A program made the translations under genes and the position numbers. A model generated the notes under the pieces. It did no database searches and was not told the DNA's origin. It was given only the letters and a program-made list of their open reading frames with translations. Below, piece by piece: positions 1-58,740 of a stretch of DNA of 64,000 nt (positions are counted from its first letter, which is position 1; the number at the start of each line of letters is the position of its first letter). This stretch comes from Bacteroidales bacterium (GTDB lineage Bacteria > Bacteroidota > Bacteroidia > Bacteroidales > UBA12077): positions 705,451 through 769,450 of the forward strand of contig OY762280.1 of the NCBI GenBank assembly GCA_963665525.1. The letters are read 5' to 3'.

Positions 1-1866
1 AATTTTAGGGATTGAGAAATTGCGAATGTCTTTATAATCATCAATTAATGATATTGTTAAAACAGCTTCTTCTTCGTAGATTTGGCTAACAATATCTTTC
101 TTTTCTTCCAGATCTTCTAGTTTCTTTTCTACTTCTGCTATTAAAATATCAGTATTTTCCAGTGTTGTACCACTAGGCATGGTAACATATAAGGTAATAT
201 CTTTTATTTCTGCTTCCTGCGATGAAATAAAACTTATTCCCAGGCTAATTAATAGAGTAACAAAGAATACTCCTAAAGCTCCTAAAATTGTTTTTCCGGG
301 TTTTCGCATACAGGTTTTTAAAATAACCATGTATATCTGGATGAGCCTGTTGTGAAACGAAATTTTTTCGAAAAGTATAGGTTTGCTTTTATCTCTTAAT
401 TTTAAGAAAGCATGTGTAATCATTGGAATGAGTAACAAGGCAACAACTAATGATACCAATAAAGTTGATATAATTGAAACTCCAATATGTTTACCGATTA
501 AACCAATGAAAAAATTAGTTGAGAAAACGAATGGAAGAAATACAGTAATGGTTGTTAATGTAGCTGCAAAAATAGATCTCCATACTTCTTTTGTTCCCTG
601 TGTTACTGCCTGATCTGGATTTATATTTTTTGAGGCCAGCCTGTAAATATTTTCCAACACAACGACACTGTTATCCAGGAGCATTCCTATGGCCAGGGCC
701 ATCCCCAGAAGCGTTAAACTATTTATGGTTATATCGAATGCGTAAAAGAAATTGAAAGCAGTATAAACAGAAATTGGTATTGCTAAAGCTATAGCTACTA
801 CTAATCGGAAGTTCTTTAAGAATATCCATAGTATAAATATGGCAAGCAATCCTCCAATTAATGCCAGCTGAATAATAGAATCGATGTTTTTTTCCATCGT
901 TTCTGCATTGTTGTTTTGTACAACGATTTCAATATCTTTTTCGGCAAGTTCTTCATTAAGAGCTGCTATTTCATCAATAACTGCATGAGATAGTGCAATG
1001 ATATTAGCCTGAGAGTCTTTGGTGAGGCTAATGGTTACAGATTCTTTACCATTGACTCTACTGTATGAAGTTTGTTCTTTAACTCCATAATGGATCTCAG
1101 CAATATCTTTGAGCTTTATTTTACCTTGTTCTTTTACAACGAGGTTATGAATATCATTAATATCATCAAATTCCGAAATCACATTCACAAAGTGCAGTTG
1201 GTTATTATTGGTTACTTTTCCTGCAAATGTTCTTGATTTACTGTTATTGCTTAAAGCAGTTCGTACATCGGCTGGTGTAATACCATAACTATCGCAGATA
1301 TCCTGATGTAGGATAATCTCTATAGATTTTTCGCGTCCACCAAATACTTCAGAATTAGCTACACCATCAATATTTTTGATTTTATTGATGATTTCACGAT
1401 CCGTAACTTGTCGTACTCGATCAACACCTCCGCTACCACGAACCTGGAGAGTCATAAACATATTATTCAGCATTTCCATGTCGAACTTAAATGTTTGTAC
1501 CTGGAATTCTTCTGGTAGCGTATTTTTTGCTTCATCAACTTTCTCGACAAGCTTTAAATAGGCAAACTTTAAATCTGTATTTTTTTGATACGAGATTCTG
1601 ATATTTCCTGATTGCTGGCCTGCGGTTGATTCAATTTTTTCGATATTTTCAAGTGTTCCAATAGCTCCTTCCAATGGAATAATTGCCTGGTTTTCCATGT
1701 ATTTAGGATCGACCTCTAAAGGAGTACCAACACTAACAAATAACATCGGATAAGTAGCATTAGGATAAAGCTCAACAGGAAGTTGTTTATATGAAATATA
1801 CCCAAGCATAGTTAGCCCCGTAAAGAGCATTGCAATAAGTACTTTTCGTTTTATTATAAAGTTCAT
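1..1866 (-). CDS. RND (AcrB/HAE1-type) efflux permease, N-terminal ~622 codons; 3' end lies outside the window
   Basis: Absent from the ORF track because it is open to nt 1. Reverse complement from ATG at 1866-1864 reads MNFIIKRKVLIAMLFTGLTMLGYISYKQLPVELYPN... and stays in frame to nt 1 (...LTISLIDDYKDIRNFSIPKI). N-terminal TM helix, large soluble loop, then a hydrophobic block (LDNSVVVLENIYR), parallel to the adjacent 1025-aa RND paralog. Confidence 0.8.
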   Translation of the reverse strand, partial: MNFIIKRKVLIAMLFTGLTMLGYISYKQLPVELYPNATYPMLFVSVGTPLEVDPKYMENQAIIPLEGAIGTLENIEKIESTAGQQSGNIRISYQKNTDLKFAYLKLVEKVDEAKNTLPEEFQVQTFKFDMEMLNNMFMTLQVRGSGGVDRVRQVTDREIINKIKNIDGVANSEVFGGREKSIEIILHQDICDSYGITPADVRTALSNNSKSRTFAGKVTNNNQLHFVNVISEFDDINDIHNLVVKEQGKIKLKDIAEIHYGVKEQTSYSRVNGKESVTISLTKDSQANIIALSHAVIDEIAALNEELAEKDIEIVVQNNNAETMEKNIDSIIQLALIGGLLAIFILWIFLKNFRLVVAIALAIPISVYTAFNFFYAFDITINSLTLLGMALAIGMLLDNSVVVLENIYRLASKNINPDQAVTQGTKEVWRSIFAATLTTITVFLPFVFSTNFFIGLIGKHIGVSIISTLLVSLVVALLLIPMITHAFLKLRDKSKPILFEKISFHNRLIQIYMVILKTCMRKPGKTILGALGVFFVTLLISLGISFISSQEAEIKDITLYVTMPSGTTLENTDILIAEVEKKLEDLEEKKDIVSQIYEEEAVLTISLIDDYKDIRNFSIPKI

Positions 1867-1900
1867 CTAAAATAGTTTCAGTTTAAAGTCTCTAGTTATC

Positions 1901-4900
1901 TTATGAAAACAACTTCACTTTTATTTTTTCAAAAACATAATAAACACACGGTATTACAACCAAGGTTAATAAGGTTGATGTGATCAAACCAGCAATAACT
2001 GCTATTGCCATTGGTGATCTTAATGCAGCACTTTCACCAATTCCAAATGTTAATGGAAGCAAAGCTAATATGGTTGTTAAACTGGTCATTATTATTGGTC
2101 TGATACGATTTTCACCTGCTCTTATGATAGAATCTTTTAGTGATAATCCTTGTGCTTTAAATTGATTAATCGCATCAACCAGAATAATGGAATCGTTTAC
2201 AGCTATCCCGGCTAACATAATTATTCCAATATAAGCCATAATACTAAGTGTTTTTCCTAATAATAGGAAAGCCCAAATGGCTCCAACTCCTGCAAGTGGG
2301 ATGGTAAGCAATATGGTAAATGGATGAATTAAAGATTCAAACTGAGAGGCCATTACCATATATACCAGAATGATTGAAAGTATTAAAGCAAAACTTAAGC
2401 TCGACATAGCTTCTTGTCTTTTCTGTTCTTCTCCTACAATCTCAATATTGTATTCTTGAGGAATATCAAGTGTGGTTAACTGCTCGCGTACCTTTGTAAT
2501 AACCTGATCGAATGCAATTGAACGATCAACATCGGCCATTACTTTACCTATTCGGTTCTGGTTTCTTCGGAATAATTGTTTTGGCGAAACTGATTTTTCA
2601 ATGTGAGCAACTTCATACAGTGGGACATTTTTATTTCCATTTTTTAGAGTAATAGAATTAAATTCAGATAAACTCATATCTGGCATTTTGACGGTAATAT
2701 CATTCATTTCACCATCTTTTTCATATTTACCTGCATCTTTACCCATAAGCAAATCTTTTAACTGAGTAATGATTTCGTCTATACTCATATTATAAATACC
2801 TGCTTTATAACGATCTATAATAACATCAATTTCAGGAGCACCTTCTTCGATATTGGTTTTAATGTTAAGTAACTCAGGAATTTCTTGCAGTTTGGCTTTT
2901 ATTTCAGATGATATCTGATCTAAAATATCCAAATCTTTTCCTTTAACTTCTATTACAAGAGGAGCTTCATCGGTTCCTAAAGTGGATTGCAGAGCTGTTT
3001 CGTCTCTTATAATTGAAATCTCAGCATCGGGAATGGTTCCCATTAATTCTTCGATAGAAGAAATAATATATTCCGATTCTTTCAGTAAATTATCTTTTAA
3101 ATGAATTTTGAGAGTAGCTGTGTTTTCGTTCTGGAAAACTGATTTTTCGTTACTGCTTGAACTTGTTGGGCCAATCTGACTGTATACAATTTCCATTTTA
3201 TCGCCCAACATTTCAGTTAACATAGACTCTACATTTTTAACCGTATTTGAAGTTCTTTCCAGTTTTGTTCCTTCTTTCAGTTTAATATCAATACTAAATT
3301 CACCGGCACCACTTTTTGGCAAATATTCAGATCCAACTTTCGGAAAAATAAATGCTGTTAGTGTAAGTAAAAGAACCGAAGAAATTAGAATTATTCCTTT
3401 ATGATCAAGTATCTTCGATAATAAATTTCCATACCATTCAATACGAACAGACTTAATTTCTTTTTTATTATTTTGTTTTCGATAAGCATAGTTGAAAAGC
3501 ATAGGAATTACCAAAATAGCTACAAATAATGAAGCCAGTAAAGAAAAAGCTACGGTCCAGGCCTGATCTTTAAATAGAGCTCCCGATGCACCATGTAAAT
3601 ACACGATAGGTAGAAATACTACAATGGTTGTCAGTGTTGAGGCTACAATTGCACCCCCAACTTCGGCAGTTCCTTGTATTGCAGCTTCGCGTACCGACAT
3701 TCCCTGCTCCATATTCCTGAAAATATTTTCCATTACCACAATTGCATTATCAACCAACATTCCGGCGCCAAGAGCTAGCCCTCCAAGTGTCATAATGTTA
3801 AGTGATAGTCCGTTGAAATACATTAGATTGAATGTTGCAATAACGGAAATAGGGATCGCAAAACTTATGATCGCTGTTACTTTTAATCTTCGTAAAAAGA
3901 TAAAAAGAACAAATACGGCAATTAAGATACCGACTAATGCAGTTTCCTGAACTTCGTCGATAGCAGTTTGAATAAACTCACCCTGATTTTGTACAATAAT
4001 AAATTCATAACCAGGAAGCGCCTTTTTAATTGATTCAAAAGATTTGGTTAAATCTTCGACTGCTTTTACGGTATTAAATCCTGTTTCTTTATAAATTGAT
4101 AATCCAACGCATCGTTTACCATTGATACGAACAATATTTTGAGGATCTTTATTTACAAAGCTTACTTTCGCAATATCTTTTAAGAATATTGGAGCTTTTT
4201 CAACAGAATTAGGATTTTGAGTGCTGTTTACCAGCTTGTAACTTAATATAATGTTTTCAATATCCTGAATATCTTCAACTAAGCTGGTACCTTTAATAAT
4301 GTATTTTTTGCCCATTTCAACAATGGTACCACCTGAAACATTCCTGTTTACATTCTGAATTTCCTGGACAATTTGGCTCGTTGTTAATCCATATGCTTCA
4401 AGTTTATATTGTTCAGTTTCTATGAGGATTTCTTTTTCTTCTGTTCCGGTAAGAGTAACATCAGCAATACCTTCTAAACGGATTAATTCATTGCGGATAT
4501 AATTTTCACCAGCTTTTCGAAGCTCATCCATATCTGTAATTTCGGGATGCAGCATTCCAATAATCATTACTGGCGATGCATTAGGATCGTGTTGAGTAAT
4601 TGTAAACTCATCAATATCGGAGCTTTGAGTGAAAGCTGTTAAAGCTTTTTGCAGATCAAGAAAAGCTTCATCCATATCGCGTCCCCAGTTATATTCTACA
4701 GTAACACGTGCAGAACCAACCATACAAACTGATGAGACTTGCGATACACCTTTTTGGCGAATGGATTGAGCTTCTATATCCTCTACAAATTGTTTTTCTA
4801 TCTCTTCCGGAGGGCGTTCTCCTGCTTTTATTTCGACAAATATTCTAGGAGCATTCATGTCAGGAAAAAGATCAACACTTAGTTTCCCAAATGAGATATA

Positions 4901-4978
4901 CCCTAAAAGAATAATTGCAATAACAATCATCGAAACCGTTACAGGATTATTAACCGAAAATTGTGTGATTTTCTTCAT
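1901..4978 (-). CDS. RND (AcrB/HAE1-type) efflux permease, 1025 aa
   Basis: Length and architecture typical of RND pumps. N-terminal TM (VTVSMIVIAIILLGYISF), two large periplasmic loops, two 5-6 helix bundles (GGLALGAGMLVDNAIVVMENIFR ... AGIAVNDSIILVDAINQF). Follows the MFP and TolC genes on the same strand. Confidence 0.9.
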   Translation of the reverse strand: MKKITQFSVNNPVTVSMIVIAIILLGYISFGKLSVDLFPDMNAPRIFVEIKAGERPPEEIEKQFVEDIEAQSIRQKGVSQVSSVCMVGSARVTVEYNWGRDMDEAFLDLQKALTAFTQSSDIDEFTITQHDPNASPVMIIGMLHPEITDMDELRKAGENYIRNELIRLEGIADVTLTGTEEKEILIETEQYKLEAYGLTTSQIVQEIQNVNRNVSGGTIVEMGKKYIIKGTSLVEDIQDIENIILSYKLVNSTQNPNSVEKAPIFLKDIAKVSFVNKDPQNIVRINGKRCVGLSIYKETGFNTVKAVEDLTKSFESIKKALPGYEFIIVQNQGEFIQTAIDEVQETALVGILIAVFVLFIFLRRLKVTAIISFAIPISVIATFNLMYFNGLSLNIMTLGGLALGAGMLVDNAIVVMENIFRNMEQGMSVREAAIQGTAEVGGAIVASTLTTIVVFLPIVYLHGASGALFKDQAWTVAFSLLASLFVAILVIPMLFNYAYRKQNNKKEIKSVRIEWYGNLLSKILDHKGIILISSVLLLTLTAFIFPKVGSEYLPKSGAGEFSIDIKLKEGTKLERTSNTVKNVESMLTEMLGDKMEIVYSQIGPTSSSSNEKSVFQNENTATLKIHLKDNLLKESEYIISSIEELMGTIPDAEISIIRDETALQSTLGTDEAPLVIEVKGKDLDILDQISSEIKAKLQEIPELLNIKTNIEEGAPEIDVIIDRYKAGIYNMSIDEIITQLKDLLMGKDAGKYEKDGEMNDITVKMPDMSLSEFNSITLKNGNKNVPLYEVAHIEKSVSPKQLFRRNQNRIGKVMADVDRSIAFDQVITKVREQLTTLDIPQEYNIEIVGEEQKRQEAMSSLSFALILSIILVYMVMASQFESLIHPFTILLTIPLAGVGAIWAFLLLGKTLSIMAYIGIIMLAGIAVNDSIILVDAINQFKAQGLSLKDSIIRAGENRIRPIIMTSLTTILALLPLTFGIGESAALRSPMAIAVIAGLITSTLLTLVVIPCVYYVFEKIKVKLFS

Positions 4979-5133
4979 GCCTTTATATTTCTAGCAAAGA
5001 TGCCAAGACGCAAAGAAATTGTAAACTTTTTCTTATGGTATTTACAATCTGAATTTCTTTGGTTTTGTTATTTCTATGCATTAATTCAATTTTTTTGATC
5101 TGTTATCTATAAATCTAAATTCTAATATCTAAA

Positions 5134-6183
5134 CTATTTAATAACTTTAACTTTGGAACGATTTCGAAGAGTTTCGAATCCTTTGATTACTAATCGATCG
5201 CCTTTTTCTAATCCTGATATAATTTGCACTTCATTTGGATTTTCTAGTCCAAATGTTACAACTCTTTCTTGTGCTAAAGCTTTATCAACTACAAATACTG
5301 TATTACCTCGTTGTTTAGAAAGAATAACATCTTTAGGAATCACAATAGTACTATCGGCCGATGCAACAATAATTTCACCTTTTGCAAACATTCCGGGACG
5401 CATTAAAAGATTTTTGTTGTTGATATTGATAATTGTTTTAAAAGATCTGGTATCAGCATCTATTGCAGGAGATATTTGTGTTATTTTACCTGTTAATGTA
5501 TCATTTGGAATCGTGTAATTCGTAATCTTAACATTTTGTCCGGGTTTAATATATCCTAAATCTTTTTCGGCTAAGTTGATTTCCATATATAATTTACTAT
5601 AATCCATTAATTTGAACATTAATGAATTTGCATCTATTTTGGTAGTAGGAGTATAATAAGGTAAATCAACAATTACTCCCGAAAATGGAGCTTTAATAAG
5701 CATTTTTTCTAGTCTTAGTAATGCATCTTTGTAGTTATAATCTGCATTGATATAATTAATTTCTGCATTCTTAAGCTCACTTAAAGTTACACCGCCTTTT
5801 TCGTACAGCGACTGCTGTTTCTCGAAAGTTTGTTTTGTAATCTCAAGATTTAGCTTCAAAGAATTTATTTTCAGGTTATTTTCATACTCTTTATCTTGTA
5901 ATTCGATGATTTTATCACCTTCTTTCACATAATCGCCCAATGCATATTTTTTACCGGTGTTTGGGTTGGTAAGTAGCATATATTTTCCTGCAATTTCAGA
6001 GCGTTTACTTATTTCTTTTACAGGGTTTACAGTTCCTGTTGTTTCAATATATTTCTCGATTGATTTCAATTTTAAATCGATGACCGATACAGGGATTGAA
6101 ATATCTTTATTCAAATCTTTTTCCTCGTTATTACAAGATGTGAATATTGCAATAGCAATGATGAATGTGATTAATCTTTTCAT
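5134..6183 (-). CDS. Periplasmic adaptor (membrane fusion protein, HlyD/RND-MFP family), lipoprotein
   Basis: 349 aa. Lipoprotein-type signal (AIAIFTSCNNEE), coiled-coil-rich middle (NNLKINSLKLNLEITKQTFEKQQSLYEKGG), beta-barrel-like C-terminus. Sits between the TolC-like and RND genes. Confidence 0.85.
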   Translation of the reverse strand: MKRLITFIIAIAIFTSCNNEEKDLNKDISIPVSVIDLKLKSIEKYIETTGTVNPVKEISKRSEIAGKYMLLTNPNTGKKYALGDYVKEGDKIIELQDKEYENNLKINSLKLNLEITKQTFEKQQSLYEKGGVTLSELKNAEINYINADYNYKDALLRLEKMLIKAPFSGVIVDLPYYTPTTKIDANSLMFKLMDYSKLYMEINLAEKDLGYIKPGQNVKITNYTIPNDTLTGKITQISPAIDADTRSFKTIININNKNLLMRPGMFAKGEIIVASADSTIVIPKDVILSKQRGNTVFVVDKALAQERVVTFGLENPNEVQIISGLEKGDRLVIKGFETLRNRSKVKVIK

Positions 6184-6210
6184 TGTATGATGTTTTTGTA
6201 TGGTTGTATT

Positions 6211-7728
6211 TTAATTTTCTGAATTAATATTATTTTGAAACTCTTGAGGAACAAATGAAGTGTTATTTTCAAAATCCCAGAGCGATTGTATTTTCATGTT
6301 TAGCAATTCAAGCTTATAATTGATTAAAGCATTTGCCAGATCCATTTTCTTTTGCGAGAGTTGATTTTGATATCTTTCTAAATCGATACTTGTTAAATCA
6401 CCATTTCGATATCTTTCTAGATTTATATCATATGTTAATTGTGCATTCTTTTCATTTTGTTTGGCAATGGTAATTTGTGAATTTAAATTCTGAAGATTTC
6501 GATAAACCTTGCGAATATTGATGACGATATCATCTTCGAGGCTTTTTAAATTTAACTCTTTAGATTCAACAGCAAGTTCAGCAGCTTTAATTCTGGCTTT
6601 TCTTTCTCCCCAGTCAAAAAGAGGAATTGAAAAAGTAACACCAACTTGAGGACTTCTAGTAGGTTTATCGTAAATATTTGCAAAATTTTCATCATTACCC
6701 ATAATCCCAATTGAAAGATCCATATCTCCACGGAATTCGTTGGTGGCAGATGTTTCAATTAAATCAAATTCAGCATTGTTTAAATCAATTTTTCTTTGCG
6801 AAAGTTCTAAGCGTTGTGATAATCCATTCTCAATTGCTTTTTCTAGATCAACAATTACAGGTGTATAATCAATATCTGTTGATATGGCAATATCTTCATA
6901 CAGAGATACTCCAATTAATTGTTTGAACTGATCTTTTGAGTTTTCTAAATCAACTCTTGCATTGTCAAGGTTTGATTGACTGGTGGCATAATTTAATTCG
7001 CCTTGCAATAATTCTTCCTGGGCTGATAATCCTGCTTCAACTTTACTTCTGATAATTTCAAAACTTACTTTCTGATTTGCAAATTCTTCTTCGGCTATCT
7101 GTACCGACATTTGTTTTTGATATATAGCATAAAATGCTTGAGTAACTTGTTGTTCAATATTTAACATTTGAATAGAGTAGGAGAGTGTTGAATTTTCAAG
7201 AGCAAGCTCCTGTCTTTTTAAATTCATTCTGGTCTTATTATAGGTAAACAAAGGTTGGTTGTAGCTTAAGTATAGGTTATTATCAAATCCTTCATATGTA
7301 TTTGTAATTTTGGTAGGATTAAGAGGATCAGTAAAGTTATCGAATGTTTCCGATGAGGTTGATCTGTATTGAAAATCGTTCCTTAAACTTAATGTTCCAT
7401 CTACCCATTTAATTGGTTGTGTTATAAGAAGTCCTCCTTTAGAGGTAGTGTTTTCTGAGTTATACCACTGCGAATAATATTCTTCGTATGTTTCACTGTT
7501 GGAATATTCGATAGGAGTAACATTTAGCGAAAAATGCGATTTTAACATTGCTAACTGAGCATTCAAATATTCCCGGTTTTGTTCCATGGTCAAACGGGAT
7601 TGTTTTATATCGGGACTATTCTCTAATGCAATATTCATAGCATCTTCTAATGTGAGCACCTTTTGCCCTTTTGAAAGTAAAGCACAGATAATGAATGTTC
7701 CTGTAAGCAGTAATTTTATTCGTGACAT
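6211..7728 (-). CDS. TolC-family outer-membrane efflux protein
   Basis: 505 aa. Signal peptide, typical N-terminus (LTLEDAMNIALENSPDIKQSRL), two repeated coiled-coil halves (AELAVESKELNLKSLEDD...). Start lies 10 nt after the upstream permease stop. Confidence 0.85.
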   Translation of the reverse strand: MSRIKLLLTGTFIICALLSKGQKVLTLEDAMNIALENSPDIKQSRLTMEQNREYLNAQLAMLKSHFSLNVTPIEYSNSETYEEYYSQWYNSENTTSKGGLLITQPIKWVDGTLSLRNDFQYRSTSSETFDNFTDPLNPTKITNTYEGFDNNLYLSYNQPLFTYNKTRMNLKRQELALENSTLSYSIQMLNIEQQVTQAFYAIYQKQMSVQIAEEEFANQKVSFEIIRSKVEAGLSAQEELLQGELNYATSQSNLDNARVDLENSKDQFKQLIGVSLYEDIAISTDIDYTPVIVDLEKAIENGLSQRLELSQRKIDLNNAEFDLIETSATNEFRGDMDLSIGIMGNDENFANIYDKPTRSPQVGVTFSIPLFDWGERKARIKAAELAVESKELNLKSLEDDIVINIRKVYRNLQNLNSQITIAKQNEKNAQLTYDINLERYRNGDLTSIDLERYQNQLSQKKMDLANALINYKLELLNMKIQSLWDFENNTSFVPQEFQNNINSEN

Positions 7729-7738
7729 ATTATTTTAT

Positions 7739-10700
7739 TTAATCGTTTTTAACCCATTTAATAGCGTCGGCAAAGATCATTTTACCAACCGATTTATTTG
7801 TTAATTCAACCTTTGCATTCTCTGGTGAGATATAGAATGTTCCCATATAGTTCCAGCCTTCATCTAATTCTTCATCGGCGAGTGTAATTTCGTCCATTCC
7901 ATCGTCGTGATAAATCTTGAAATTGTAATTTGGTTTCCTTTTAGATCGATCCCACTCTATATTTATCTTTTCTATATTGCAATAAACATCGTAATATCCA
8001 TCGTTTGGTAATTCTGCATTCCATTGAGCTATCCTGGTTCCTTCGCCAGTGCGAGTATACATTGCAGAACGAACATATTTGCCGTAAAATCCAGAACGAA
8101 GTACAGGTTTCCACTCCGATGGTGGATTCCAAAAATGTATTCCGGAATACTTGTAGCGGTCGACTTTATTTTTATGAATGACTGATCGTAAATAACTTTC
8201 GTTTGATTCTTGAATGTATTCAAATCCTTCGTCTTCATTGTCGACAATTATTTCGTTTTTACCAATCATTTCATTAAATAAAGGAATATCTCGTATTTCA
8301 TCGAGCATGGTGACCTTTTTAAGCTCATCAAAACCTGAAAACTCATAAATAAGATTGTTTGGAAGATTCTCTGAAATATTGGTAAAAATATTCATTCTGG
8401 TTGGTTCTGTAGGAAATACAACACCAACTTCTTTAGCTGATTTTGCCGAGATAAATATCTTGGTAGCGAAGTCAGGTTGTTGAGGACCTTCAGCTGTAAA
8501 ACTCCTTGAATTACTTTTATCATCTAAATCAATATTCATGGTAATGATGCCATCGATATCTTCAGGATTAGCTATCTTAAATCGGATTTGATATTTGGTA
8601 TATTCACCATCTAAAACCTTATAAGTCTCTAAATCTTTAATTAAAAATCCTGCTAGTTCTTTTTTAGTAAACCATTGATCAATTTCAGTTGCAATAGAAT
8701 CGCTGAATGTATTTTTAATTTCAGATTCGAGCTGGTTAAAATCAAAGCTTTTATGCTGATTGTTTTTGATAAGTTTATTTAGTAATCGGTTAAATTCTTT
8801 TTCTCCATAACGAGCTCTGAACAAAGAAAAAAGATAGTCTCCTTTAGCTAAAATAACATCGTTAATAGTAAGTGGATCACCATCTTCATCGTCTTCGTTT
8901 CCTTTTTCAACTCCTTTTCTTAATAAGTCGGCAAGACTTGCCTGTTTTAATTCAAGATTAATTTTTTCACCTTTACTAATCCCCCTGAAAAACCAACGAT
9001 ACGACGAGACACTATTTACATTTCGTTCGCGTAAATAAACTTCTAATGCGAGATTTAAAATTGGCCAATCTTCAGATTGTAAGCTGGTAATTTGTGTATA
9101 ATAATGAGGAATTAATGAGTAAGTATATTTATCGACAACTTCCCTGAATTGATACCATTCTGTTGGTGGAGCCATTAAATTCCCGCGAACAAATCGTTTG
9201 AAAATACGGCATTGTAATTCTTCAGGAGATACTTCTTCGTTATTTTCTTTCATTCTTTTTTCGAAGCGATTCCTACGGTTACGGAAATCAGTTTCTTCCA
9301 TAATAACTCCTTTTTCGGGATAGAGAATCATTTCAGGTTGCACCGCATCACTGGTAATTGACCATAAATGTTTATCGAGTGCAAAATGAATAGGAACTTC
9401 GGCAAAAGAAAATCGGTCGAAACCATAATTTAAATCCAGAAGAGTACCATACTCATCTCTTAATTCGCGAATTATTGCGGGCATGGTATCTTTAAATTCT
9501 GTAAAGTGTCGTAAATAGAATTCATTTCCTTTTGTAGTATATATCGAATACTCAACAGAATCGACTTTAACAGAATATTTATTATAATCAGCAATTAACA
9601 GACTAATTTTAGGTAAGGCATAAGTATTCTTAAATTGATATGTTCCAATATCTAAAGAATCGACTTCTCCTTGTGATACTGCAACCAAATCATTTGCTGT
9701 TTTAACTTTTAGGTTAAATAAGGTAAAATCGGGTTGATAAAATGCAGGTTTATTCGTTGCATATGTTACACCAGATTTAGGGTACCATAATGATTCGCTG
9801 GTTAAACAAACAAAATCTTTTTGAAGATAAGCAAAACGCTTTCTTGCTCTGAATATTTCCATCGGGAAATTATCCTCATAATCTTCCAGATTTTTATCGA
9901 GAAGATGTGTGTTTTCATTGATGCTTCCCTGGTATATAAATGTTATCGATTTGCTGTCGCCAACATTTAAATGATTAGCAATTTTTACCAGGTGTAAATT
10001 TCTGGTAAAGTCAACTTTCTTATTTTCAATTTCAATTGAACTGATGAATAATTCAGGATTCAAACTAAAAATTAAAGTGTCAATTGCTTGATTGTTTTTA
10101 TTCGTAACATTCAGTTGTGTAGTTGATTTTATTTGATTCTCCAGGTGTTCAATGTCAATATTGCATTGATTGACATAAACTCTTAAAGCATTAGAATATT
10201 GGTTATTTAGAGCAATAAATTGTTCTTTTTGGCGGATGTTGTCTTTTTTCATATCAATGAATCGATATCCTAAATAAAATCCTAAAAAGATTAAGATTAA
10301 AGCAATAGTAACAGGCAAAAATTTAAACGATTTTGACTGAGGTAATCGATTAAGTTTTGATATGGTAAAAAAGATTAATCCAAGGCCTACAAGAAAGTAT
10401 AAGCTTCGATGAAGTAAAATCTCGGTAAAATTTCCAAATCCTCCAATGGTAGAATGCATCATTGGGACTTTGTAGGCAATATAATCGAACAGGTGATAAT
10501 ATTTGTTTTGCAGGTAGAAAACCGTGAGTGCAATATACCCTAATAATAAGATAAAAGTTATGGCCTGATTTTTAAGAACTGTCATAAGAAAAAATGATAG
10601 TCCCAGGATGAATACCAATGTAGGAATACTAATAAAAATAGGGTATAAGAAAAATTCTAATATTCCTTTAGCTGAGTCGTTGCTTAAGAAAGAAAAACCC

Positions 10701-11089
10701 ATTCCCAGAATCAGAATGATAAAATTCAATATCATGAAAACAGAAATTACTCCAATTGCTTTTCCAATGATGTATTGTCCATTTGTCATCGATCGGGCAT
10801 AGATAACTTCTACCGTGTCATTTTTTCTATCCTGTTTTAAGAATTCAGATGCTAAGAAAACAGCAACAATAGCTTGTCCAAGATTTAGTATCATCAGATT
10901 TGCATACGGAACGGCAGCTGGTAAAGCTCGGTATAACCATGGGGCACCGCTTGATTCAACAAAAACAGCAACATTAAAAATGCCAATCCCAATAATAAAT
11001 AAGCCTGCAAAAATTCTGAAAAACCAACTTCTAAGAAGGGTTTTCATTTCAAATCGGGCAACTATTTTAATGGTTTGAATCGAACTCAT
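7739..11089 (-). CDS. ABC-2-type multi-pass permease fused to a large M1-aminopeptidase-like ectodomain that lacks the zinc motif; golvesin-C-like C-terminal domain
   Basis: 1116 aa. About 7 hydrophobic helices in the first ~280 aa, and the start is 1 nt from the ATPase stop. The soluble part is colinear with the 1206-aa paralog at 54219-57839 (SLLIADYNKYSVKVDSVEYSIYTTKGNEFYL vs SWLSADYEKVEDSWNGVDLAIYYHKGHEYNL), but no HExxH occurs anywhere in the translation. The C-terminus (AQWNAELPNDGYYDVY...GWNYMGTFYISPENAKVELTN...IFADAIKWV) resembles golvesin-C-terminal-like domains. Confidence 0.65.
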   Translation of the reverse strand: MSSIQTIKIVARFEMKTLLRSWFFRIFAGLFIIGIGIFNVAVFVESSGAPWLYRALPAAVPYANLMILNLGQAIVAVFLASEFLKQDRKNDTVEVIYARSMTNGQYIIGKAIGVISVFMILNFIILILGMGFSFLSNDSAKGILEFFLYPIFISIPTLVFILGLSFFLMTVLKNQAITFILLLGYIALTVFYLQNKYYHLFDYIAYKVPMMHSTIGGFGNFTEILLHRSLYFLVGLGLIFFTISKLNRLPQSKSFKFLPVTIALILIFLGFYLGYRFIDMKKDNIRQKEQFIALNNQYSNALRVYVNQCNIDIEHLENQIKSTTQLNVTNKNNQAIDTLIFSLNPELFISSIEIENKKVDFTRNLHLVKIANHLNVGDSKSITFIYQGSINENTHLLDKNLEDYEDNFPMEIFRARKRFAYLQKDFVCLTSESLWYPKSGVTYATNKPAFYQPDFTLFNLKVKTANDLVAVSQGEVDSLDIGTYQFKNTYALPKISLLIADYNKYSVKVDSVEYSIYTTKGNEFYLRHFTEFKDTMPAIIRELRDEYGTLLDLNYGFDRFSFAEVPIHFALDKHLWSITSDAVQPEMILYPEKGVIMEETDFRNRRNRFEKRMKENNEEVSPEELQCRIFKRFVRGNLMAPPTEWYQFREVVDKYTYSLIPHYYTQITSLQSEDWPILNLALEVYLRERNVNSVSSYRWFFRGISKGEKINLELKQASLADLLRKGVEKGNEDDEDGDPLTINDVILAKGDYLFSLFRARYGEKEFNRLLNKLIKNNQHKSFDFNQLESEIKNTFSDSIATEIDQWFTKKELAGFLIKDLETYKVLDGEYTKYQIRFKIANPEDIDGIITMNIDLDDKSNSRSFTAEGPQQPDFATKIFISAKSAKEVGVVFPTEPTRMNIFTNISENLPNNLIYEFSGFDELKKVTMLDEIRDIPLFNEMIGKNEIIVDNEDEGFEYIQESNESYLRSVIHKNKVDRYKYSGIHFWNPPSEWKPVLRSGFYGKYVRSAMYTRTGEGTRIAQWNAELPNDGYYDVYCNIEKINIEWDRSKRKPNYNFKIYHDDGMDEITLADEELDEGWNYMGTFYISPENAKVELTNKSVGKMIFADAIKWVKND

Positions 11090-11090
11090 T

Positions 11091-11999
11091 TTAAAAGTGG
11101 TTTTTGTCAGTTAAATATTCCATAAAATATACATAAGCATGTTCTAGATCGGGTTCAATTTCAATAGCATTTTTTGCTTCTAATTGGTCACCAACCAACT
11201 GAACTTCCCAGCCTTCTTCTGATGGTATAGTAGATATGATGGCGTATTTTTCTTTTAGCATTTCATATTCAAAACCTGAAGTATTAACCTGCCAAACGTG
11301 ACCTCGAGTTTTATTAATAAGTTCTTCAGGCGATCCTTTAAATCCAACTGTTCCCTTGTTTAGCAATGCCAGATCCTGGCAAACACTTGAAATATCTCCA
11401 ACAATATGTGTCGATAGAATTATAATAACGTCTTTCTGGCTTATCTCAGAGAGAATATTTCTAAATCGGATTCGCTCTTCGGGATCAAGGCCGGTGGTAG
11501 GTTCGTCAACAACAATAATTTTGGGATCACCAATTAAAGCCTGAGCTATTCCTAATCGTCGCTTCATTCCTCCAGAAAGCTTATTGGCACTACGCTCGCG
11601 AACATCGAATAAGCCCACTTTATCGAGCCATTCATCTACTTTTTCAAGCCGTTTGGTTTTGTTGTTAATGCCTGATAAACCAGCTGCATAATTTAAAAAT
11701 TCCCATGTTTTAAGTTTTGTAAAGAATCTAAAATCCTGAGGGAGATAACCTAGCATTTTACGAATTTCTCCTCGATCGCTCATTAGATTAAATCCATTTA
11801 CATTAACATTCCCATTGGTAGGTTTCATTAATGTAACAAGAATTCGCATCAAACTCGACTTGCCTGCTCCGTTCGGACCAAGAAGGCCAAACATTCCATT
11901 TTCGATTTCTAGATTTATTCCTGAAAGTGCACGTTTCCCGTTTTTGTAAACCTTATCCAGATTTTCAATTTGTATTTTCATTCTTTCCTGTCCATTCAA
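11091..11999 (-). CDS. ABC transporter ATP-binding protein
   Basis: Walker A GPNGAGKS, ABC signature LSGGMKRR, Walker B IIVVDEPTTGLD, H-loop STHIV. The true start may be the internal Met (MKIQIENL, ~11981). Confidence 0.9.
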   Translation of the reverse strand: MNGQERMKIQIENLDKVYKNGKRALSGINLEIENGMFGLLGPNGAGKSSLMRILVTLMKPTNGNVNVNGFNLMSDRGEIRKMLGYLPQDFRFFTKLKTWEFLNYAAGLSGINNKTKRLEKVDEWLDKVGLFDVRERSANKLSGGMKRRLGIAQALIGDPKIIVVDEPTTGLDPEERIRFRNILSEISQKDVIIILSTHIVGDISSVCQDLALLNKGTVGFKGSPEELINKTRGHVWQVNTSGFEYEMLKEKYAIISTIPSEEGWEVQLVGDQLEAKNAIEIEPDLEHAYVYFMEYLTDKNHF

Positions 12000-12157
12000 T
12001 AATTTATTGTCTAATAAACTATTGTTTAGGTTAATATTTTGATGTTAGACGACTAAGTTAGTAATCAGTTACAGATATTTCTTACATTTTTTTAATGTAA
12101 AAAATAATATTTAACTTAATTTAACTAAATCAGTGTCTTATAAAAAGGCAAGTTACA

Positions 12158-12186
12158 AAGAATGATCCTTTTTGAGGATCATTCTT
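12158..12186 (-). terminator. Candidate intrinsic terminator downstream of the metallopeptidase gene
   Basis: 12-bp perfect stem AAGAATGATCCT (12158-12169) / AGGATCATTCTT (12175-12186) with a 5-nt loop. On the minus strand the T-run is not immediately adjacent. Confidence 0.5.
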
Positions 12187-12210
12187 TAGAATAAATATGA
12201 GTGATGTGGT

Positions 12211-13719: not shown

Positions 13720-13789
13720 AATAAATACTTATTTAATGAATTGAATAATTTGTCTGTTATATGATTTAAAAAGAATTATTTGGTTTAAT

Positions 13790-54218: not shown

Positions 54219-57200
54219 TTATGTTGAAATCGTTGCAGTCGATTTGGTATTATCATCCCTGTGACGATCAATTAATTTATAATAAGGATCAATTCCAACC
54301 TTACTAGGTTTATGGTCTATAACGAATTCAAAATCTCTATTATTTTCTTCAATTTTAAATTTCTTTAAGAAAATTTCAGTTTCCTTTTTAGTACTGTCGT
54401 TAACTTCTTTCGAGAAAACTGCTATATCAATCCAGTCGTTCAATGGAATTTCTTCTTCTCGACCTAGGCTGTCTGCTCTAAATTTCTGACATTCAACAGA
54501 GAAATTTACTTTGTATTTTCCGTCTTCAAGCTCTTCATAATCTACTTCAGCAACTTTATTTTCAAATAAAGTAATGGTTTCAAACATATCGTGAATTAAA
54601 TATTGAAGCGAATCAGGAGTAACTTCTTTAATGTAATCGATAAACTCAAGTGAGGTAACAAACGGTGGTTCCTGGAAAGCGTAATCTGCCACAAACTTTT
54701 TGAGAGCTTCATTAATTTTATCTTCACCAATATAATCGGCTAATGCATACATCACAACATTTCCTTTTTTATAGTGTAAATAGCCTTGATCCGGGCGTAG
54801 ATATAACAATGGTGGCTCATAATGTGACTCTGTACTTCGTCCACTTAAATAACTATCCATATCGTATTTAACCATATCACGAACCTTTTCAATACCATAA
54901 GCCTTCTCAATAACTTTAAGTGAAGAATATTGACAAAGCACTTCGGATGTTACGGTAGCACCTTCAACAAATGCGCCAATTACCTGGTGTGCCCACCATT
55001 GATGTGCTACTTCATGCGAGGTTACCCAGAATGGATAATTGTTGTCTTCTTCTTCAATTTTTGCTATAAAACCAATGCTTTCACTAAATGGAATCATATT
55101 TGGAAAAGACTGAGCGAAACTAGAAAATCGAGGGAATTCGAAAACTCTTAACTGTCGATATTGGAATGGGCTAAAGTTCTCAGTATAATACTCAAGCGAC
55201 ATTTTCATAGCTTTCATCATATCTTCAAGGTTATATTCATGTCCCTTATGATAGTATATTGCTAAATCAACACCATTCCAGCTATCTTCAACCTTTTCGT
55301 AATCGGCCGATAACCACGATACAAAATTCAGGATCTTACTATCCATCTTGTAATGGAAATATTTACGTCCGTTTTCTTCCCATTCTTTTTCAAGATACCC
55401 TGGAGCAATGGCTGTTTGTTCCGGAATGGTACTGACTACGGTTTCAAATCGAATCCAGTCGCCATCGTTAGAAATATAAGTATTTTGTAGTGCTATGGTA
55501 TCATTTATACTTGCTATGAGTTGCTTTTCGGGCAAATCATATTTCTTCCGTTTTTTCTCATTAGTAAGCTCATAACCTTCATTATAACCAATGGATGGTA
55601 ACATACTACTTGTTAAAAATGAACCATTATGTATTAACCTTGTATTTGAACCACTATTGCGGAAGCCTTTGGTAATCATATTTTGTTCTATAATAACTTT
55701 GGTAGAGTCTCCCGGCATTAATGGTTCTTTAAATTTGCAAATACGGAATTCCATGTTGGTATCATCATAAACAATGTCGAAAGGTTTTTCGAAATCAAAT
55801 TTGATGAGATCTATATTTCCACTATAGTTTACAAAAACAGAATCGATAGGTTTATTCGACTTGTTTTTTACAATGTAGAATCCTTTAAAATAAGCATTAC
55901 GTTTTTTTGGATAGATATCCACATTTATATTCATTTCAACAATTCTTGGTTGATTATATCCCTGGTATTTTTTGTATTGCTTTTCATAATTAACCGATTC
56001 CATTAATCTTTCTTTACTTGTGGTATATTCGTTTAGAATATTGGTATTGTAATAGATATATCCTCCAAGTCCAATAAAAATGATGATGAAAACTGATAAA
56101 GCAATTCTGGTTTTTAGAGTTATTCTTTGTTTAAAGAGTTTTAATCTTTCAGAGAATTTTTTATCATTCCCTCTAACCCAAAGTAAATTTGATAAGATAG
56201 CTAGAATGATAGCAAACGAAATCCAGTAAGCCTTATATATTAAGAATGGTCCTACGAAATGGCCATATCCATTCATGTCGGAATATGCAATTCCTGGGTC
56301 AGAAGCAAAATCATAAAGATTATGTTCTAGTCCCATTCCTCCCATAAAGGAGCTAAATAGATAGTAGAGGATCATTACAAAATGACCGATGTATTTATTA
56401 TTGACAAGTGTATGTACAATAAAAGCCAAAAAGCAAAGTAAGATATAGTCTATCATGGCTACACCATATAAGCCTTTGATGTACAGTCCAATTTCAAAAT
56501 TGAAATATCCCATTACGGCTTGTGCAATAATACCAATAAACATTATAATTGTCATTAAGATAACTTGCACTGAAAAAAGAGCTGAAAGTTTCGATGTGTA
56601 AATAGTCCAAGTAGGTATAGGCAACGAGTCAACAATTTCATTTACTTTAAATGACCTTTCGTTCCATACAATTTCGCCCGATAAGAAGGTTATTATAATT
56701 AGCACAAACAGGGTAAATGTTGCCCCTAGTATTTCAATAACCTGATATGTTACAGGGTAAGTAGTTGTTCCGTAGAATCTACCCAGTTGAGCTGTATTAA
56801 TCATGATAAACAAAATACCTGTAGCTAAGATGCCTAAAAAATAAGGATTCTTAATGAGATTTTTGGTTTCAAATTTAATAAGCCTAATAAGTTGACTAAT
56901 CCTTGCTTTTGTAGAAAAAACCTGATTTACTTTAGGAAGTTTAAGCTTGAATAATTTATGAACAGGATTAATGTTTGCAAATATCATCCTCGAATTTTTT
57001 CTAAAGCGTAATTGAAATACACTTTGAGAAAATTTGAAGCGAATCAATAAAATTGAAAATACGACTACAGCAACAGAACTCCAAATTAAACGGTTAAACA
57101 GTAATAGCCAGGTAAACGGAATGAGCATTTCGTTTTTCTCTGTTACTGTCCAGTATTTTGTTAGTGTTTCAAACGCTGTTCCTCCAAAAGGATCAATTAG

Positions 57201-57839
57201 CGAAGAAAGGGTGGTGTTTTCAATGTCACTGATCAAGCTACCAGCAACTCCATATAATACTAATAAAGCAATGCAACCTAAATAAGTTGCAAGAAGATTT
57301 CTGGAGATAGCAGCAATTGTAAAAATTAGAATTCCTACAATTAAGATATTTGGAATAACATTGGATAAATAAGGACTTATATAAGCCATAAACTGATTGT
57401 CACCAAAGAAATCTCTGTTTAAATACGGCATTAACGATGCCATATACATTCCTAAGCCAATACTTGAAAAAACAAAAATCGCGGCAATAAATCCACCAAA
57501 AAATCTTCCTCCCAAATATCCAAACTTACTCATCGGATATGAGAATAAAAGTGCATGTGTATTATTTTCGTAATCTCTATAGATCGAATTTCCTACGAGA
57601 GCAGGAAGAAGAATTAAGGCCATAAAGCTTAAGCCAGTTACCATGTTGTATATAACAAAAGGCGAATTGGTAAGAACTTTGCCTCCCATACCTCCAATAG
57701 ATACTGATACTCCATCAATTAAACCACTGAATGCATTAATGATAAGAAAAGTTAAGGCAAATAAAATTCCCCAGTAGATATATACAGCTGGTCGACGGAA
57801 TTTATATTTTAATTCAAATGATAATATTCTGAAAAACAT
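54219..57839 (-). CDS. ABC-2-type multi-pass permease fused to an M1-family aminopeptidase domain (zinc site intact)
   Basis: 1206 aa. Roughly a dozen hydrophobic helices in the first ~600 aa, then a soluble domain with HEVAH (nt 55002-55016) in WVTSHEVAHQWWAH, followed about 20 residues later by a Glu (TSEVLCQY). Lies 16 nt downstream of an ABC ATPase gene. Confidence 0.75.
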   Translation of the reverse strand: MFFRILSFELKYKFRRPAVYIYWGILFALTFLIINAFSGLIDGVSVSIGGMGGKVLTNSPFVIYNMVTGLSFMALILLPALVGNSIYRDYENNTHALLFSYPMSKFGYLGGRFFGGFIAAIFVFSSIGLGMYMASLMPYLNRDFFGDNQFMAYISPYLSNVIPNILIVGILIFTIAAISRNLLATYLGCIALLVLYGVAGSLISDIENTTLSSLIDPFGGTAFETLTKYWTVTEKNEMLIPFTWLLLFNRLIWSSVAVVVFSILLIRFKFSQSVFQLRFRKNSRMIFANINPVHKLFKLKLPKVNQVFSTKARISQLIRLIKFETKNLIKNPYFLGILATGILFIMINTAQLGRFYGTTTYPVTYQVIEILGATFTLFVLIIITFLSGEIVWNERSFKVNEIVDSLPIPTWTIYTSKLSALFSVQVILMTIIMFIGIIAQAVMGYFNFEIGLYIKGLYGVAMIDYILLCFLAFIVHTLVNNKYIGHFVMILYYLFSSFMGGMGLEHNLYDFASDPGIAYSDMNGYGHFVGPFLIYKAYWISFAIILAILSNLLWVRGNDKKFSERLKLFKQRITLKTRIALSVFIIIFIGLGGYIYYNTNILNEYTTSKERLMESVNYEKQYKKYQGYNQPRIVEMNINVDIYPKKRNAYFKGFYIVKNKSNKPIDSVFVNYSGNIDLIKFDFEKPFDIVYDDTNMEFRICKFKEPLMPGDSTKVIIEQNMITKGFRNSGSNTRLIHNGSFLTSSMLPSIGYNEGYELTNEKKRKKYDLPEKQLIASINDTIALQNTYISNDGDWIRFETVVSTIPEQTAIAPGYLEKEWEENGRKYFHYKMDSKILNFVSWLSADYEKVEDSWNGVDLAIYYHKGHEYNLEDMMKAMKMSLEYYTENFSPFQYRQLRVFEFPRFSSFAQSFPNMIPFSESIGFIAKIEEEDNNYPFWVTSHEVAHQWWAHQVIGAFVEGATVTSEVLCQYSSLKVIEKAYGIEKVRDMVKYDMDSYLSGRSTESHYEPPLLYLRPDQGYLHYKKGNVVMYALADYIGEDKINEALKKFVADYAFQEPPFVTSLEFIDYIKEVTPDSLQYLIHDMFETITLFENKVAEVDYEELEDGKYKVNFSVECQKFRADSLGREEEIPLNDWIDIAVFSKEVNDSTKKETEIFLKKFKIEENNRDFEFVIDHKPSKVGIDPYYKLIDRHRDDNTKSTATIST

Positions 57840-57855
57840 ATTTTTAGCGATTTAA

Positions 57856-58740
57856 TTAAACATGAACTGTTTCTTTTACTTTTTTTATGGATGAAAAGTA
57901 AACATCTTCCAATGTTGGAGTTACCTGTTCAAAAGAATCAGGATTTATGTCGCTAAAAGCATGAATAATGATTTTCCCGGTATATAATCGTGATGAAATA
58001 ATGTTATATTTCTCCTGATGTTCTTTCAGTTCATTTTTCTCAATAACCTTTTCCCATATTTTACCTTCAACATTTTTAATTAAATCAGCAGGCTCACCTT
58101 GAAGTAATAGCTGACCTTCATTTATAATAGCCATGTTTTTACATAAATCGCTTACATCATCTACGATGTGTGTTGAAAGAATAACAATGATATTTTCACC
58201 AATTTCGCTTAATAAGTTATGAAAACGATTTCTTTCAGCAGGATCTAAACCAGCTGTAGGCTCATCTACTATGATTAGTTTTGGGTTTCCAATCAAAGCT
58301 TGGGCAATACCAAAACGTTGCTTCATACCTCCCGAATATCCGCTCAGGTTTTTCTTTCTAACATGATAAAGGTTTGTTTGTTCTAATAAAGATTTAACAA
58401 GCTCTTTACGTTCTTTTTTATCTATAACTCCTTTTAATTCTGCAAAATGATCCAATAGCATTTCCGCTGATATCTTAGGATATACACCAAACTCTTGAGG
58501 TAAATAACCTAGTTGTTTTCTCACTTCATCTTTTTGTTTTAAGACATTCATTCCATCCAGAGTAACATTGCCTTGATCTGCTTCTTGCAAGGTTGCAATA
58601 GTTCGCATTAAGGTTGATTTCCCAGCTCCGTTTGGACCGAGTAGTCCAAACATGCCTTTGGGTATTGTTAAATCAACATTTTTTAAAGCCTGTACTCCGT
58701 TAGGGTAAGTCTTTGATAGACCAGAAATTTTTAATTCCAT
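57856..58740 (-). CDS. ABC transporter ATP-binding protein (paralog of 11091-11999)
   Basis: 294 aa. Walker A GPNGAGKS, signature YSGGMKQR, Walker B LIIVDEPTAGLD, H-loop STHIV. Confidence 0.9.
   Translation of the reverse strand: MELKISGLSKTYPNGVQALKNVDLTIPKGMFGLLGPNGAGKSTLMRTIATLQEADQGNVTLDGMNVLKQKDEVRKQLGYLPQEFGVYPKISAEMLLDHFAELKGVIDKKERKELVKSLLEQTNLYHVRKKNLSGYSGGMKQRFGIAQALIGNPKLIIVDEPTAGLDPAERNRFHNLLSEIGENIIVILSTHIVDDVSDLCKNMAIINEGQLLLQGEPADLIKNVEGKIWEKVIEKNELKEHQEKYNIISSRLYTGKIIIHAFSDINPDSFEQVTPTLEDVYFSSIKKVKETVHV

Follow-up and report, generated by a model that had tools for sequence, protein, structure and literature searches.

Why would an ATP-binding cassette (ABC) transporter whose permease carries a peptidase fold be encoded directly ahead of a complete resistance-nodulation-division (RND) pump? 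The question is raised by the first 11,999 nucleotides (nt) of a 64,000-nt stretch of Bacteroidales bacterium DNA (GCA_963665525.1, contig OY762280.1, positions 705,451-769,450 of the forward strand), the whole of which we refer to as the window. RND and ABC efflux are usually treated as separate machines sharing at most TolC. An earlier sequence-only reading tied the ABC pair of this gene string to the outer-membrane, adaptor and RND genes that follow it, and its wider idea, that ABC and RND parts belong to one export apparatus, is the best-supported reading of our data. At a rough probability of 60%, we propose that the eight products of a module that begins in the window work as one envelope-spanning export system, in which an RND pump is coupled to ABC-2 parts and a pseudo-peptidase acts as a binding or docking module.

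The string consists of six open reading frames (ORFs) on the minus strand at 1-11999. All six were reproduced by ORF listing and translation, and the family of every gene was confirmed with Pfam and NCBIfam. At its head lies an ABC ATPase of the DrrA/GldA (ABC-2) type, referred to as NBD1 (nucleotide-binding domain 1; 11091..11981), with Pfam ABC_tran at E 3e-30 and with NCBIfam drrA (192 bits) and GldA (188 bits) as the top models, both under their equivalog cut-offs. Its Walker A, signature, Walker B and H-loop motifs are canonical, as they are in all NBDs of the module. It is followed by a 1116-aa fusion permease (7739..11089), a TolC-like outer-membrane factor (OMF; 6211..7728, 505 aa, Pfam OEP E 8e-49, two repeats) and a periplasmic adaptor, or membrane fusion protein (MFP; 5134..6183, 349 aa), which is of the RND type (NCBIfam RND_mfp, 184.9 bits against a cut-off of 94.9). 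The RND permease RND_A (1901..4978, 1025 aa) matches Pfam ACR_tran at E 2e-222. RND_B (1..1866), recognized by RND models, is truncated by the window start, so that the N-terminal 622 aa of this second RND permease are seen. The recomputed gaps are 1 nt between ATPase and fusion permease, 10 nt to the OMF, 27 nt to the MFP, 155 nt to RND_A and 34 nt to RND_B. These genes and gaps are as first read, except at one end. The ATPase had been placed at 11999-11091; its end stands, and its start is more likely the ATG at 11981 (296 aa) than the TTG at 11999 reached by the mechanical ORF, since most orthologues are 292-300 aa long and the alignment to the GldA model begins at residue 7 when the ORF is read from the TTG.

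A sign that these genes belong together comes from their relatives. We scanned one genome per GTDB species and compared the best 80 loci out of at least 538 stretches encoding relatives of the fusion permease, counting each gene only at loci whose contig extends far enough. The loci come from Bacteroidales/Marinilabiliales, with Labilibaculum, Marinifilum, Ancylomarina, Perlabentimonas, Mariniphaga and Draconibacterium among them, and also from Cytophagia and Cyclobacteriaceae, Melioribacteraceae, Krumholzibacteriota and KSB1. Identities among the fusion permeases go down to 36%. Over this range, the ATPase lies directly upstream of the fusion permease at 71 of 72 loci and the OMF comes after it at all 67; the MFP (63/63), RND_A (58/59) and RND_B (57/59) are likewise in place. 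One locus has two inserted genes, and one is without RNDs. Beyond the module, the flanking genes vary between loci, upstream as well as downstream. Judged by this gene order, the string is an ancient conserved module, and the fact that NBD1 and the fusion permease invariably stand at its head argues that both belong to the same system as the pump.

Extra genes in a few relatives were considered as breaks of the module and are read as insertions instead; they encode a DUF418 membrane protein (one subclade), a PDDEXK nuclease and an ATPase_2 protein. The DUF418 (YeiB-like) gene sits between MFP and RND_A (L011:16035-17333, L016:14703-15947, L027:16046-17281, also L021; positions here and below are those within our numbered loci).

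The synteny bears directly on a rival explanation, in which the ABC pair is a self-contained exporter (of a glycan, lipid or peptide) or a mechanotransducer, co-regulated with the pump under a common envelope stress and out of physical contact with it. Such independence would suit the adjacency of NBD1 and the membrane domain TMD1 of the fusion permease (the 1-nt gap) and the like adjacency of NBD2 and TMD2 in a second ABC set described below, which suggests two cognate, self-sufficient pairs. It would also suit the active 1206-aa relative of the fusion permease, which is a stand-alone two-gene unit in the same window. However, the gene order persists across several phyla at a protein identity of 36%, with variable flanks on both sides, and among the best 80 no sufficiently long locus has the fusion permease without OMF and MFP directly downstream. 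Co-regulation alone rarely keeps such gene order. We consider an independent ABC pair unlikely.

The string had been taken to end at the second RND gene. Its six genes stand, and relatives reveal that the module runs on beyond the window. The full module has eight genes, encoding NBD1, the fusion permease (TMD1, a pseudo-M1 peptidase and a domain resembling a carbohydrate-binding module, CBM), OMF, MFP, RND_A, RND_B, NBD2 and TMD2, of which the window covers the first five and 622 aa of the sixth. In most relatives NBD2 is fused to RND_B; the two are split in Bacteroides thetaiotaomicron VPI-5482 and in a few metagenome-assembled genomes. Thus, the proposed tie between the ABC pair and the OMF, MFP and RND genes is upheld both by near-universal synteny across phyla and by this gene fusion.

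The RND_B::NBD2 fusion is read from two sources, namely read-through ORFs in the loci and partial gene calls carrying both Pfam domains. At about 43 loci the RND_B frame extends past the normal RND length, reaching up to 1460 aa and in every case ended by the end of the locus. Pfam on two of these ORFs gives ACR_tran at residues 1-1041, a linker of about 250 aa and then ABC_tran. Many independent partial gene calls in public data contain PF00873 and PF00005 together, and some RND-containing fragments bear the NCBI name 'ABC transporter ATP-binding protein'. Among the matches listed, there is no full-length fused protein (lengths of at most 1089 aa in the RND_B search and at most 700 aa with the tail profile). 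Example loci for the continuation are L079:18958-23337, L036:19117-23340, L082:10001-15428 and L083-L085. By the 'Rosetta stone' argument, we grade this gene fusion as strong evidence that the ABC and RND parts interact physically.

The linker between RND_B and NBD2 contributes six further transmembrane (TM) segments. Its AlphaFold2 (AF2) model has a predicted local distance difference test (pLDDT) of 81 and contains a strand, IKIRNLVKIY, resembling the first strand of an ABC ATPase. We notice that the first strand of NBD2 (IxIRNLVKIYD) appears in the model to be set apart from the rest of the NBD by an insertion of about 185 residues with four TM helices (P0391 98-300; L082:13200-14711). The structural matches of NBD2 are NBDs of the ABC-2, NosF and LptB types. 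TMD2, of about 233-238 aa with six TM segments, always comes next after NBD2 (seen in L081-L085), and the gene content varies beyond it. A weak match to PF12698 (ABC2_membrane_3) is found in one orthologue only, and pairwise comparison of TMD2 with TMD1 and with the two membrane domains of the 1206-aa protein gives nothing significant. Its six TM segments, the weak PF12698 match and a motif shared by eye suggest an ABC-2-like permease.

The fusion permease is built from five parts. Residues 1-298 (10196..11089; all parts on the minus strand) form a probable ABC-2-type membrane domain, a six-helix core with a seventh TM helix that carries the remainder to the periplasm; the seven TM segments follow from hydropathy and AF2 helices, and the remaining approximately 820 residues are predicted to be periplasmic. 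The match of the membrane domain to PF12679 (ABC2_membrane_2) is weak (18.4 bits, under the cut-off of 27.2), and BLASTP and hhalign find it homologous to the second membrane domain (TMD-b) of the 1206-aa protein, which is positive for ABC2_membrane_4. It is the most conserved portion in a family alignment of 77 members (the window protein and 76 loci, identity down to 36%). Residues 299-530 (9500..10195) correspond to an M1-type N-terminal beta-sandwich (AF2 pLDDT mostly >85; Foldseek matches to M1 aminopeptidases at E 1e-17), and residues 531-815 (8645..9499) to the remnant of the M1 thermolysin-like catalytic domain, which has lost the zinc ligands and the catalytic Tyr. Residues 816-1000 (8090..8644) make up one or more beta-rich domains with AF2 strands at 816-960, the first of which aligns with the C-terminal beta domain of the 1206-aa family. 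Residues 1001-1116 and the stop codon (7739..8089) encode a Golvesin_C / Xly CBM-like domain (Pfam PF25275, E 7.7e-13).

The AF2 model of the fusion permease has a mean pLDDT of 67, with values mostly >85 at residues 300-390 and 420-510. In a Foldseek search of the PDB with this model, the top 50 matches are all M1 aminopeptidases, led by IRAP (8cgp_B, E 1.4e-17) and including ERAP1/2, puromycin-sensitive aminopeptidase, PepN and tricorn F3 down to 5e-15; the alignments cover about 650 columns at 9-12% identity. By this predicted model, the overall fold of the tail is that of M1, an N-terminal beta-sandwich followed by a thermolysin-like domain. The golvesin-C-like end, which the sequence-only reading had noted as missing from the 1206-aa protein, is indeed found here (residues 1002-1113, 49.1 bits against a gathering cut-off of 31.6) and absent there. 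Precomputed annotation places Golvesin_C in nearly all relatives of the fusion permease. The family profile also matches the C-terminal domain of Paenibacillus xanthan lyase (6f2p, E 0.0016), with which a carbohydrate-binding-module-like role of this domain would fit.

This anatomy bears on the model first drawn from the sequence, in which NBD1 and the fusion permease are a MacAB-like ABC pump, so that two alternative inner-membrane engines would dock on one MFP hexamer and TolC channel. It is true that the two RNDs and two ABC sets of the module have a single OMF gene and a single MFP gene between them, and that the ABC pair lies 10 nt upstream of the OMF, in near-universal synteny with it. 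An ABC-2 transporter encoded with an MFP also has a precedent in YbhGFSR (PMC7190983). The defining features of MacAB are missing, however. Pfam finds no FtsX or MacB_PCD domain in the fusion permease, though both occur in other window proteins, such as that at 18305-20692. The MFP, recognized as an RND adaptor, scores 62.8 bits with the MacA model against a cut-off of 342. The M1-like and CBM tail of about 820-840 aa would probably fill the space that the MFP hexamer takes up on MacB, and fusion of NBD2 to RND_B speaks for ABC parts that are attached to the RND pump rather than substituting for it. Two engines sharing an adaptor therefore seem rather improbable to us.

The sequence-only reading took the M1 part for a zinc-site-less, catalytically dead derivative, and this is supported. 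A motif scan finds HExxH, HxxEH and CxxC nowhere in the 1116-aa protein, nor does it contain the exopeptidase motif G.MEN or MEN. PF01433 (Peptidase_M1) gives no match to it at E<=0.01; in three close relatives the match is borderline (25.5-28.6 bits against 27.7) and limited to residues 689-804, profile positions 103-218. HExxH is present within the catalytic domain in 0 of the 77 family members, no His or Cys is conserved across them in residues 531-815, and His is absent from residues 600-660 of the family consensus.

Mapping the former zinc site required a profile of the active relatives. With the 1206-aa sequence alone as target, the BLASTP and hhalign alignments ended at about residue 530, and the site became mappable only with a profile of 44 sequences of the 1206-aa family, taken from a search of 1.84 billion representative proteins. 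H942, E943, H946, E966 and Y1023 are invariant in this profile, and the 1206-aa family is for that reason assigned, from its sequences, to an active M1 lineage. Its consensus reads FAQSF where canonical M1 has GAMEN, so substrate anchoring may differ from that of classical aminopeptidases. hhalign of the 1116-aa family against the profile reaches a probability of 99.2% (E 1e-19; residues 3-931 against 310-1201), and in this profile-profile alignment of the two fusions the HExxH...E ligands are lost. T643 stands opposite H946, EWY 644-646 opposite the QWW after H946, L680 opposite E966 and L747 opposite Y1023, with K749-G750 of the Y-x-K-G helix kept. H942/E943 fall opposite N637/L638, or E623/E624 in an alternative run; the two runs disagree at this point, and neither pairing is a ligand pair. 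An independent alignment to the cold-active aminopeptidase 3cia again places a Leu opposite the catalytic Tyr.

The domain is nevertheless well kept. A decaying gene was considered and is ruled out because conservation extends over the full length, with 139 positions >=97% conserved across the 77 sequences. On these alignments, the M1 domain of the fusion permease is a pseudoenzyme under purifying selection. E564, E592 and D601 are invariant in the 77 sequences, and several conserved residues are common to both families (E564/E901, P566/P903, E592/E920, Y685/Y971 and K749-G750/K1025-G1026), with D601 conserved in the 1116-aa family only. One could take the invariant acidic residues for a non-canonical site through which a cryptic enzyme processes a periplasmic peptide or glycopeptide for export, the more so as the active family is also invariant at the positions of E564, P566, E592, Y685 and K749-G750. 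But replacements have occurred at all three zinc-ligand positions, at the general-base Glu and at the catalytic Tyr, no His or Cys is conserved in residues 531-815, and the conserved positions are explained equally well by fold and ligand binding. We hold hidden catalysis to be very improbable.

The active relative itself lies outside the module. An ABC ATPase (57856-58740) and the 1206-aa permease::active M1 protein (54219-57839) form a minus-strand pair at 54219..58740, a stand-alone two-gene unit without OMF, MFP or RND genes nearby. The two systems use the same kind of ATPase partner (48% identical between them), and they have a homologous membrane domain, M1 N-domain, catalytic scaffold and next beta domain, with M1 predicted to be periplasmic in both. 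They differ in that the 1206-aa family combines two membrane domains in a single chain (13 TM, or 13 hydrophobic segments), keeps HExxH...E and the catalytic Tyr invariant and has no Golvesin_C. The fusion permease matches the second membrane domain and the M1 part only: BLASTP gives 23% identity (E 5e-10, residues 5-526 against 316-871), and by BLASTP and hhalign residues 299-530 align to residues 620-872. The colinearity claimed for the two proteins therefore holds for residues ~310-1201 of the 1206-aa protein and breaks down at its extra N-terminal 6-TM domain. To call them paralogs was an overstatement, given the 23% identity, the partial coverage and the large, old family to which each belongs: 1548 matches at E<=1e-5 in public data for the 1116-aa family and 1808 representative clusters at E<=1e-30 for the 1206-aa family. 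No dedicated NCBIfam model matches the 1206-aa protein. As judged from these comparisons, the two are ancient homologues, and a recent duplication with one dead copy does not apply.

One copy of the module resides in a model organism. The B. thetaiotaomicron locus (L082, AE015928.1 344807-368001) encodes products of 297, 1101 (Golvesin_C), 498 (OEP), 353 (MFP), 1038 and 1064 (both ACR_tran), 503 (ABC_tran) and 233 aa, each the best match of its window counterpart. Identities between window and B. thetaiotaomicron are 64% for NBD1 (by inference BT_0295), 33% for the full-length fusion permease, 46% for the OMF (BT_0297), 51% for the MFP, 55% for RND_A (BT_0299) and 54% for RND_B (BT_0300). Between RND_A and RND_B the identity is only 27%, and both have their own orthologues in other taxa. 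Published tables lead us to infer that the module spans BT_0295-BT_0302; in them, BT_0297 appears as 'outer membrane lipoprotein SilC' (PMC4380924), BT0299 as an RND permease and BT0302 as a hypothetical protein (PMC10434189). In VPI-5482, RND_B and NBD2 are separate ORFs 4 nt apart, and comparison with other species suggests that BT_0300/BT_0301 is one gene split by a frameshift (L082:13140-13215). In the literature searched, the ABC genes flanking BT0297-0300 receive no mention, and this copy is handled only as the 'RND cluster BT0297-0300'.

The functional data found for this copy, expression values included, come from one study. 'BT0297-0300' is one of seven RND clusters reported to be bile-induced, and its deletion leaves bile-induced biofilm formation unaffected (PMC11078008). 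With bile, the log2 fold change (log2FC) is -0.50 for BT0295 (base mean 422), +1.13 for BT0296 (54), +2.14 for BT0297 (28), +2.80 for BT0298 (29), +1.20 for BT0299 (71) and +2.04 for BT0302 (11), with an adjusted p <0.05 for BT0298 only (PMC11078008, Table S3). The fusion permease and the distal TMD2 thus trend upwards together with the pump genes, all of them at low expression. We notice that the published RNA-seq table has no entry for the RefSeq tag between BT_RS01470 and BT_RS01480, and that the Table S2 value for 'BT0300' equals the Table S3 value for BT0302 (PMC11078008). The bile induction of the cluster points to amphiphile or envelope stress as the context. On the other hand, the expression of BT0295 is uncoupled from that of the downstream genes, which would be expected if the ABC pair acted independently.

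Several points weigh against a single export system. ABC-2 transporters often work without adaptors, and the MFP here is of the RND rather than the MacA type. The putative link between ABC and RND parts is one of genomic context, and the RND_B::NBD2 fusion is known from relatives only, since in this genome that part lies outside the window. AF2 is poor at residues 567-601 and 640-661, that is, at the former active site, where E564, E592 and D601 may build a residual ligand or metal site. In B. thetaiotaomicron, BT0295 reads about 8-fold above BT0296 and is not bile-induced, and it may have its own promoter (PMC11078008 for the reads).

If the eight products do act as one system, we propose that a two-paralog RND pump with MFP and OMF would be coupled to ATP-driven ABC-2 components. 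The pseudo-peptidase would cleave nothing; most likely it would bind or dock a ligand, a glycan or a partner subunit in the periplasm. By analogy with NosDFY, MacB and FtsEX, NBD1 could drive the conformation of the dead M1 domain. NBD1/TMD1 and NBD2/TMD2 may be two homodimeric ABC units or one heterodimeric unit, the latter paralleling the layout of the 1206-aa protein, with two TMDs to one M1, and that of YbhFSR (PMC7190983). A bolder version, possible but doubtful, is a dual-energy efflux machine that uses both proton-motive force and ATP and would be a new class of tripartite pump. In this version, an RND_A/RND_B trimer would be tethered covalently through the six extra TM helices of RND_B to the ABC-2 ATPase, and NBD1/NBD2 with TMD1/TMD2 would form one heterodimeric ABC-2 complex beside it. 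The dead M1 and CBM domains would then be a periplasmic receptor that catches a peptide- or glycan-bearing amphiphile and passes it to the RND/MFP/OMF duct.

Around these genes, a minus-strand hairpin of 14 bp with a T-rich tail (12141..12187), found from sequence and fold directly after the stop codon of the upstream gene, is a probable terminator at the 5' boundary of the module's transcription unit. Terminator scanning and folding detect no comparably strong terminator inside the string. The 155-nt gap between MFP and RND_A has a weak A/U-rich hairpin only, and an internal promoter or partial termination may be located there. Scans for sigma-70 promoters and terminators, with models not made for Bacteroidota promoters, stayed at chance level; the TAnnTTTG motif is absent from the intergenic gaps of the string, and no Rfam families or meaningful repeats occur in 1-12400.

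Upstream of the module on the same strand, 12211-15358 encodes a weakly M3/M32-like protein (502 aa, Pfam under cut-offs) and an S41 peptidase (522 aa); among relatives, only the closest (L003, L008, L039) also carry the M3-like gene upstream of the module. Four tandem units follow at 15452-36569, each pairing a minus-strand histidine kinase and sigma-54 response regulator with a plus-strand MacB-type permease (MacB_PCD and FtsX, ~790-805 aa); Pfam was run on the first unit, and the others are read from ORF sizes that repeat. Two more permeases of this size are found farther on, at 38658-41042 and 45903-48317, with no adjacent ABC ATPase gene. The regions 36714-38432, 41216-42898 and 59510-62764 encode two proteins with type-IX-secretion C-terminal sorting domains (one also with Sortilin/Vps10 and Big_12) and a 560-aa ankyrin-repeat protein.

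Taken together, gene order over several phyla and the widespread RND::ABC-ATPase fusion indicate a hard-wired combination of ABC and RND parts. The literature searched holds nothing relevant on an RND-ABC fusion, an M1/ABC-permease fusion or golvesin in such a context, and the composite architecture with its pseudo-peptidase subunit appears to be undescribed, although the genes are already in databases and one copy is in a model organism. The fusion permease family alone has more than 1500 matches in public data, which go by the annotation 'hypothetical' or 'golvesin C-terminal-like domain-containing'. It offers a clean example of a transporter part in which strong selection has preserved a peptidase scaffold. 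As B. thetaiotaomicron is genetically tractable and its cluster responds to bile, both bile or amphiphile tolerance and the combination of ATP with proton-motive force can be addressed there.

Comparison with known systems sets this module apart from each of them. Like MacAB-TolC, the module places an MFP and an OMF beside an ABC transporter that has a large periplasmic domain. In contrast to MacB, which is of the 4-TM FtsX/MacB type, the permease here is probably of the ABC-2 type, with 7 TM, and has no MacB_PCD, and the MFP is not MacA-like. With E. coli MdtABC-TolC, the module has in common an OMF, an MFP and two adjacent, divergent RND genes in one string, with both RND lineages kept separate. 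The two-gene, MdtBC-like arrangement proposed for the RNDs is thus sound as regards two adjacent genes with an MFP, but they are not MdtB/MdtC orthologues: RND_A scores 409 bits with MdtC (cut-off 1774) and 375 with MdtB (cut-off 1584), and RND_B is similarly low. Unlike MdtABC-TolC, the module also has two ABC ATPases and two putative ABC-2 permeases, with RND_B usually fused covalently to one of the ATPases.

E. coli YbhGFSR is an ABC-2 system in which two ATPase domains, two different ABC-2 permeases and an MFP are encoded together (PMC7190983). This parallels NBD1/NBD2 and TMD1/TMD2 in architecture only, and YbhGFSR differs in having no RND genes, no pseudo-peptidase and no CBM-like domain. 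A further likeness concerns the mode of action. NosDFY, MacB and FtsEX are ABC complexes that pass ATP-driven movement to periplasmic parts, NosFY being of the ABC-2 type and FtsEX not. The periplasmic module here differs from those of NosDFY and FtsEX in lying within the permease chain and in its M1 fold. By analogy with these two systems, ATP hydrolysis in the present module might move a periplasmic module rather than, or in addition to, pumping a solute; JGI annotation describes relatives of the fusion permease as NosY-like, and NosF is among the structural matches of NBD2.

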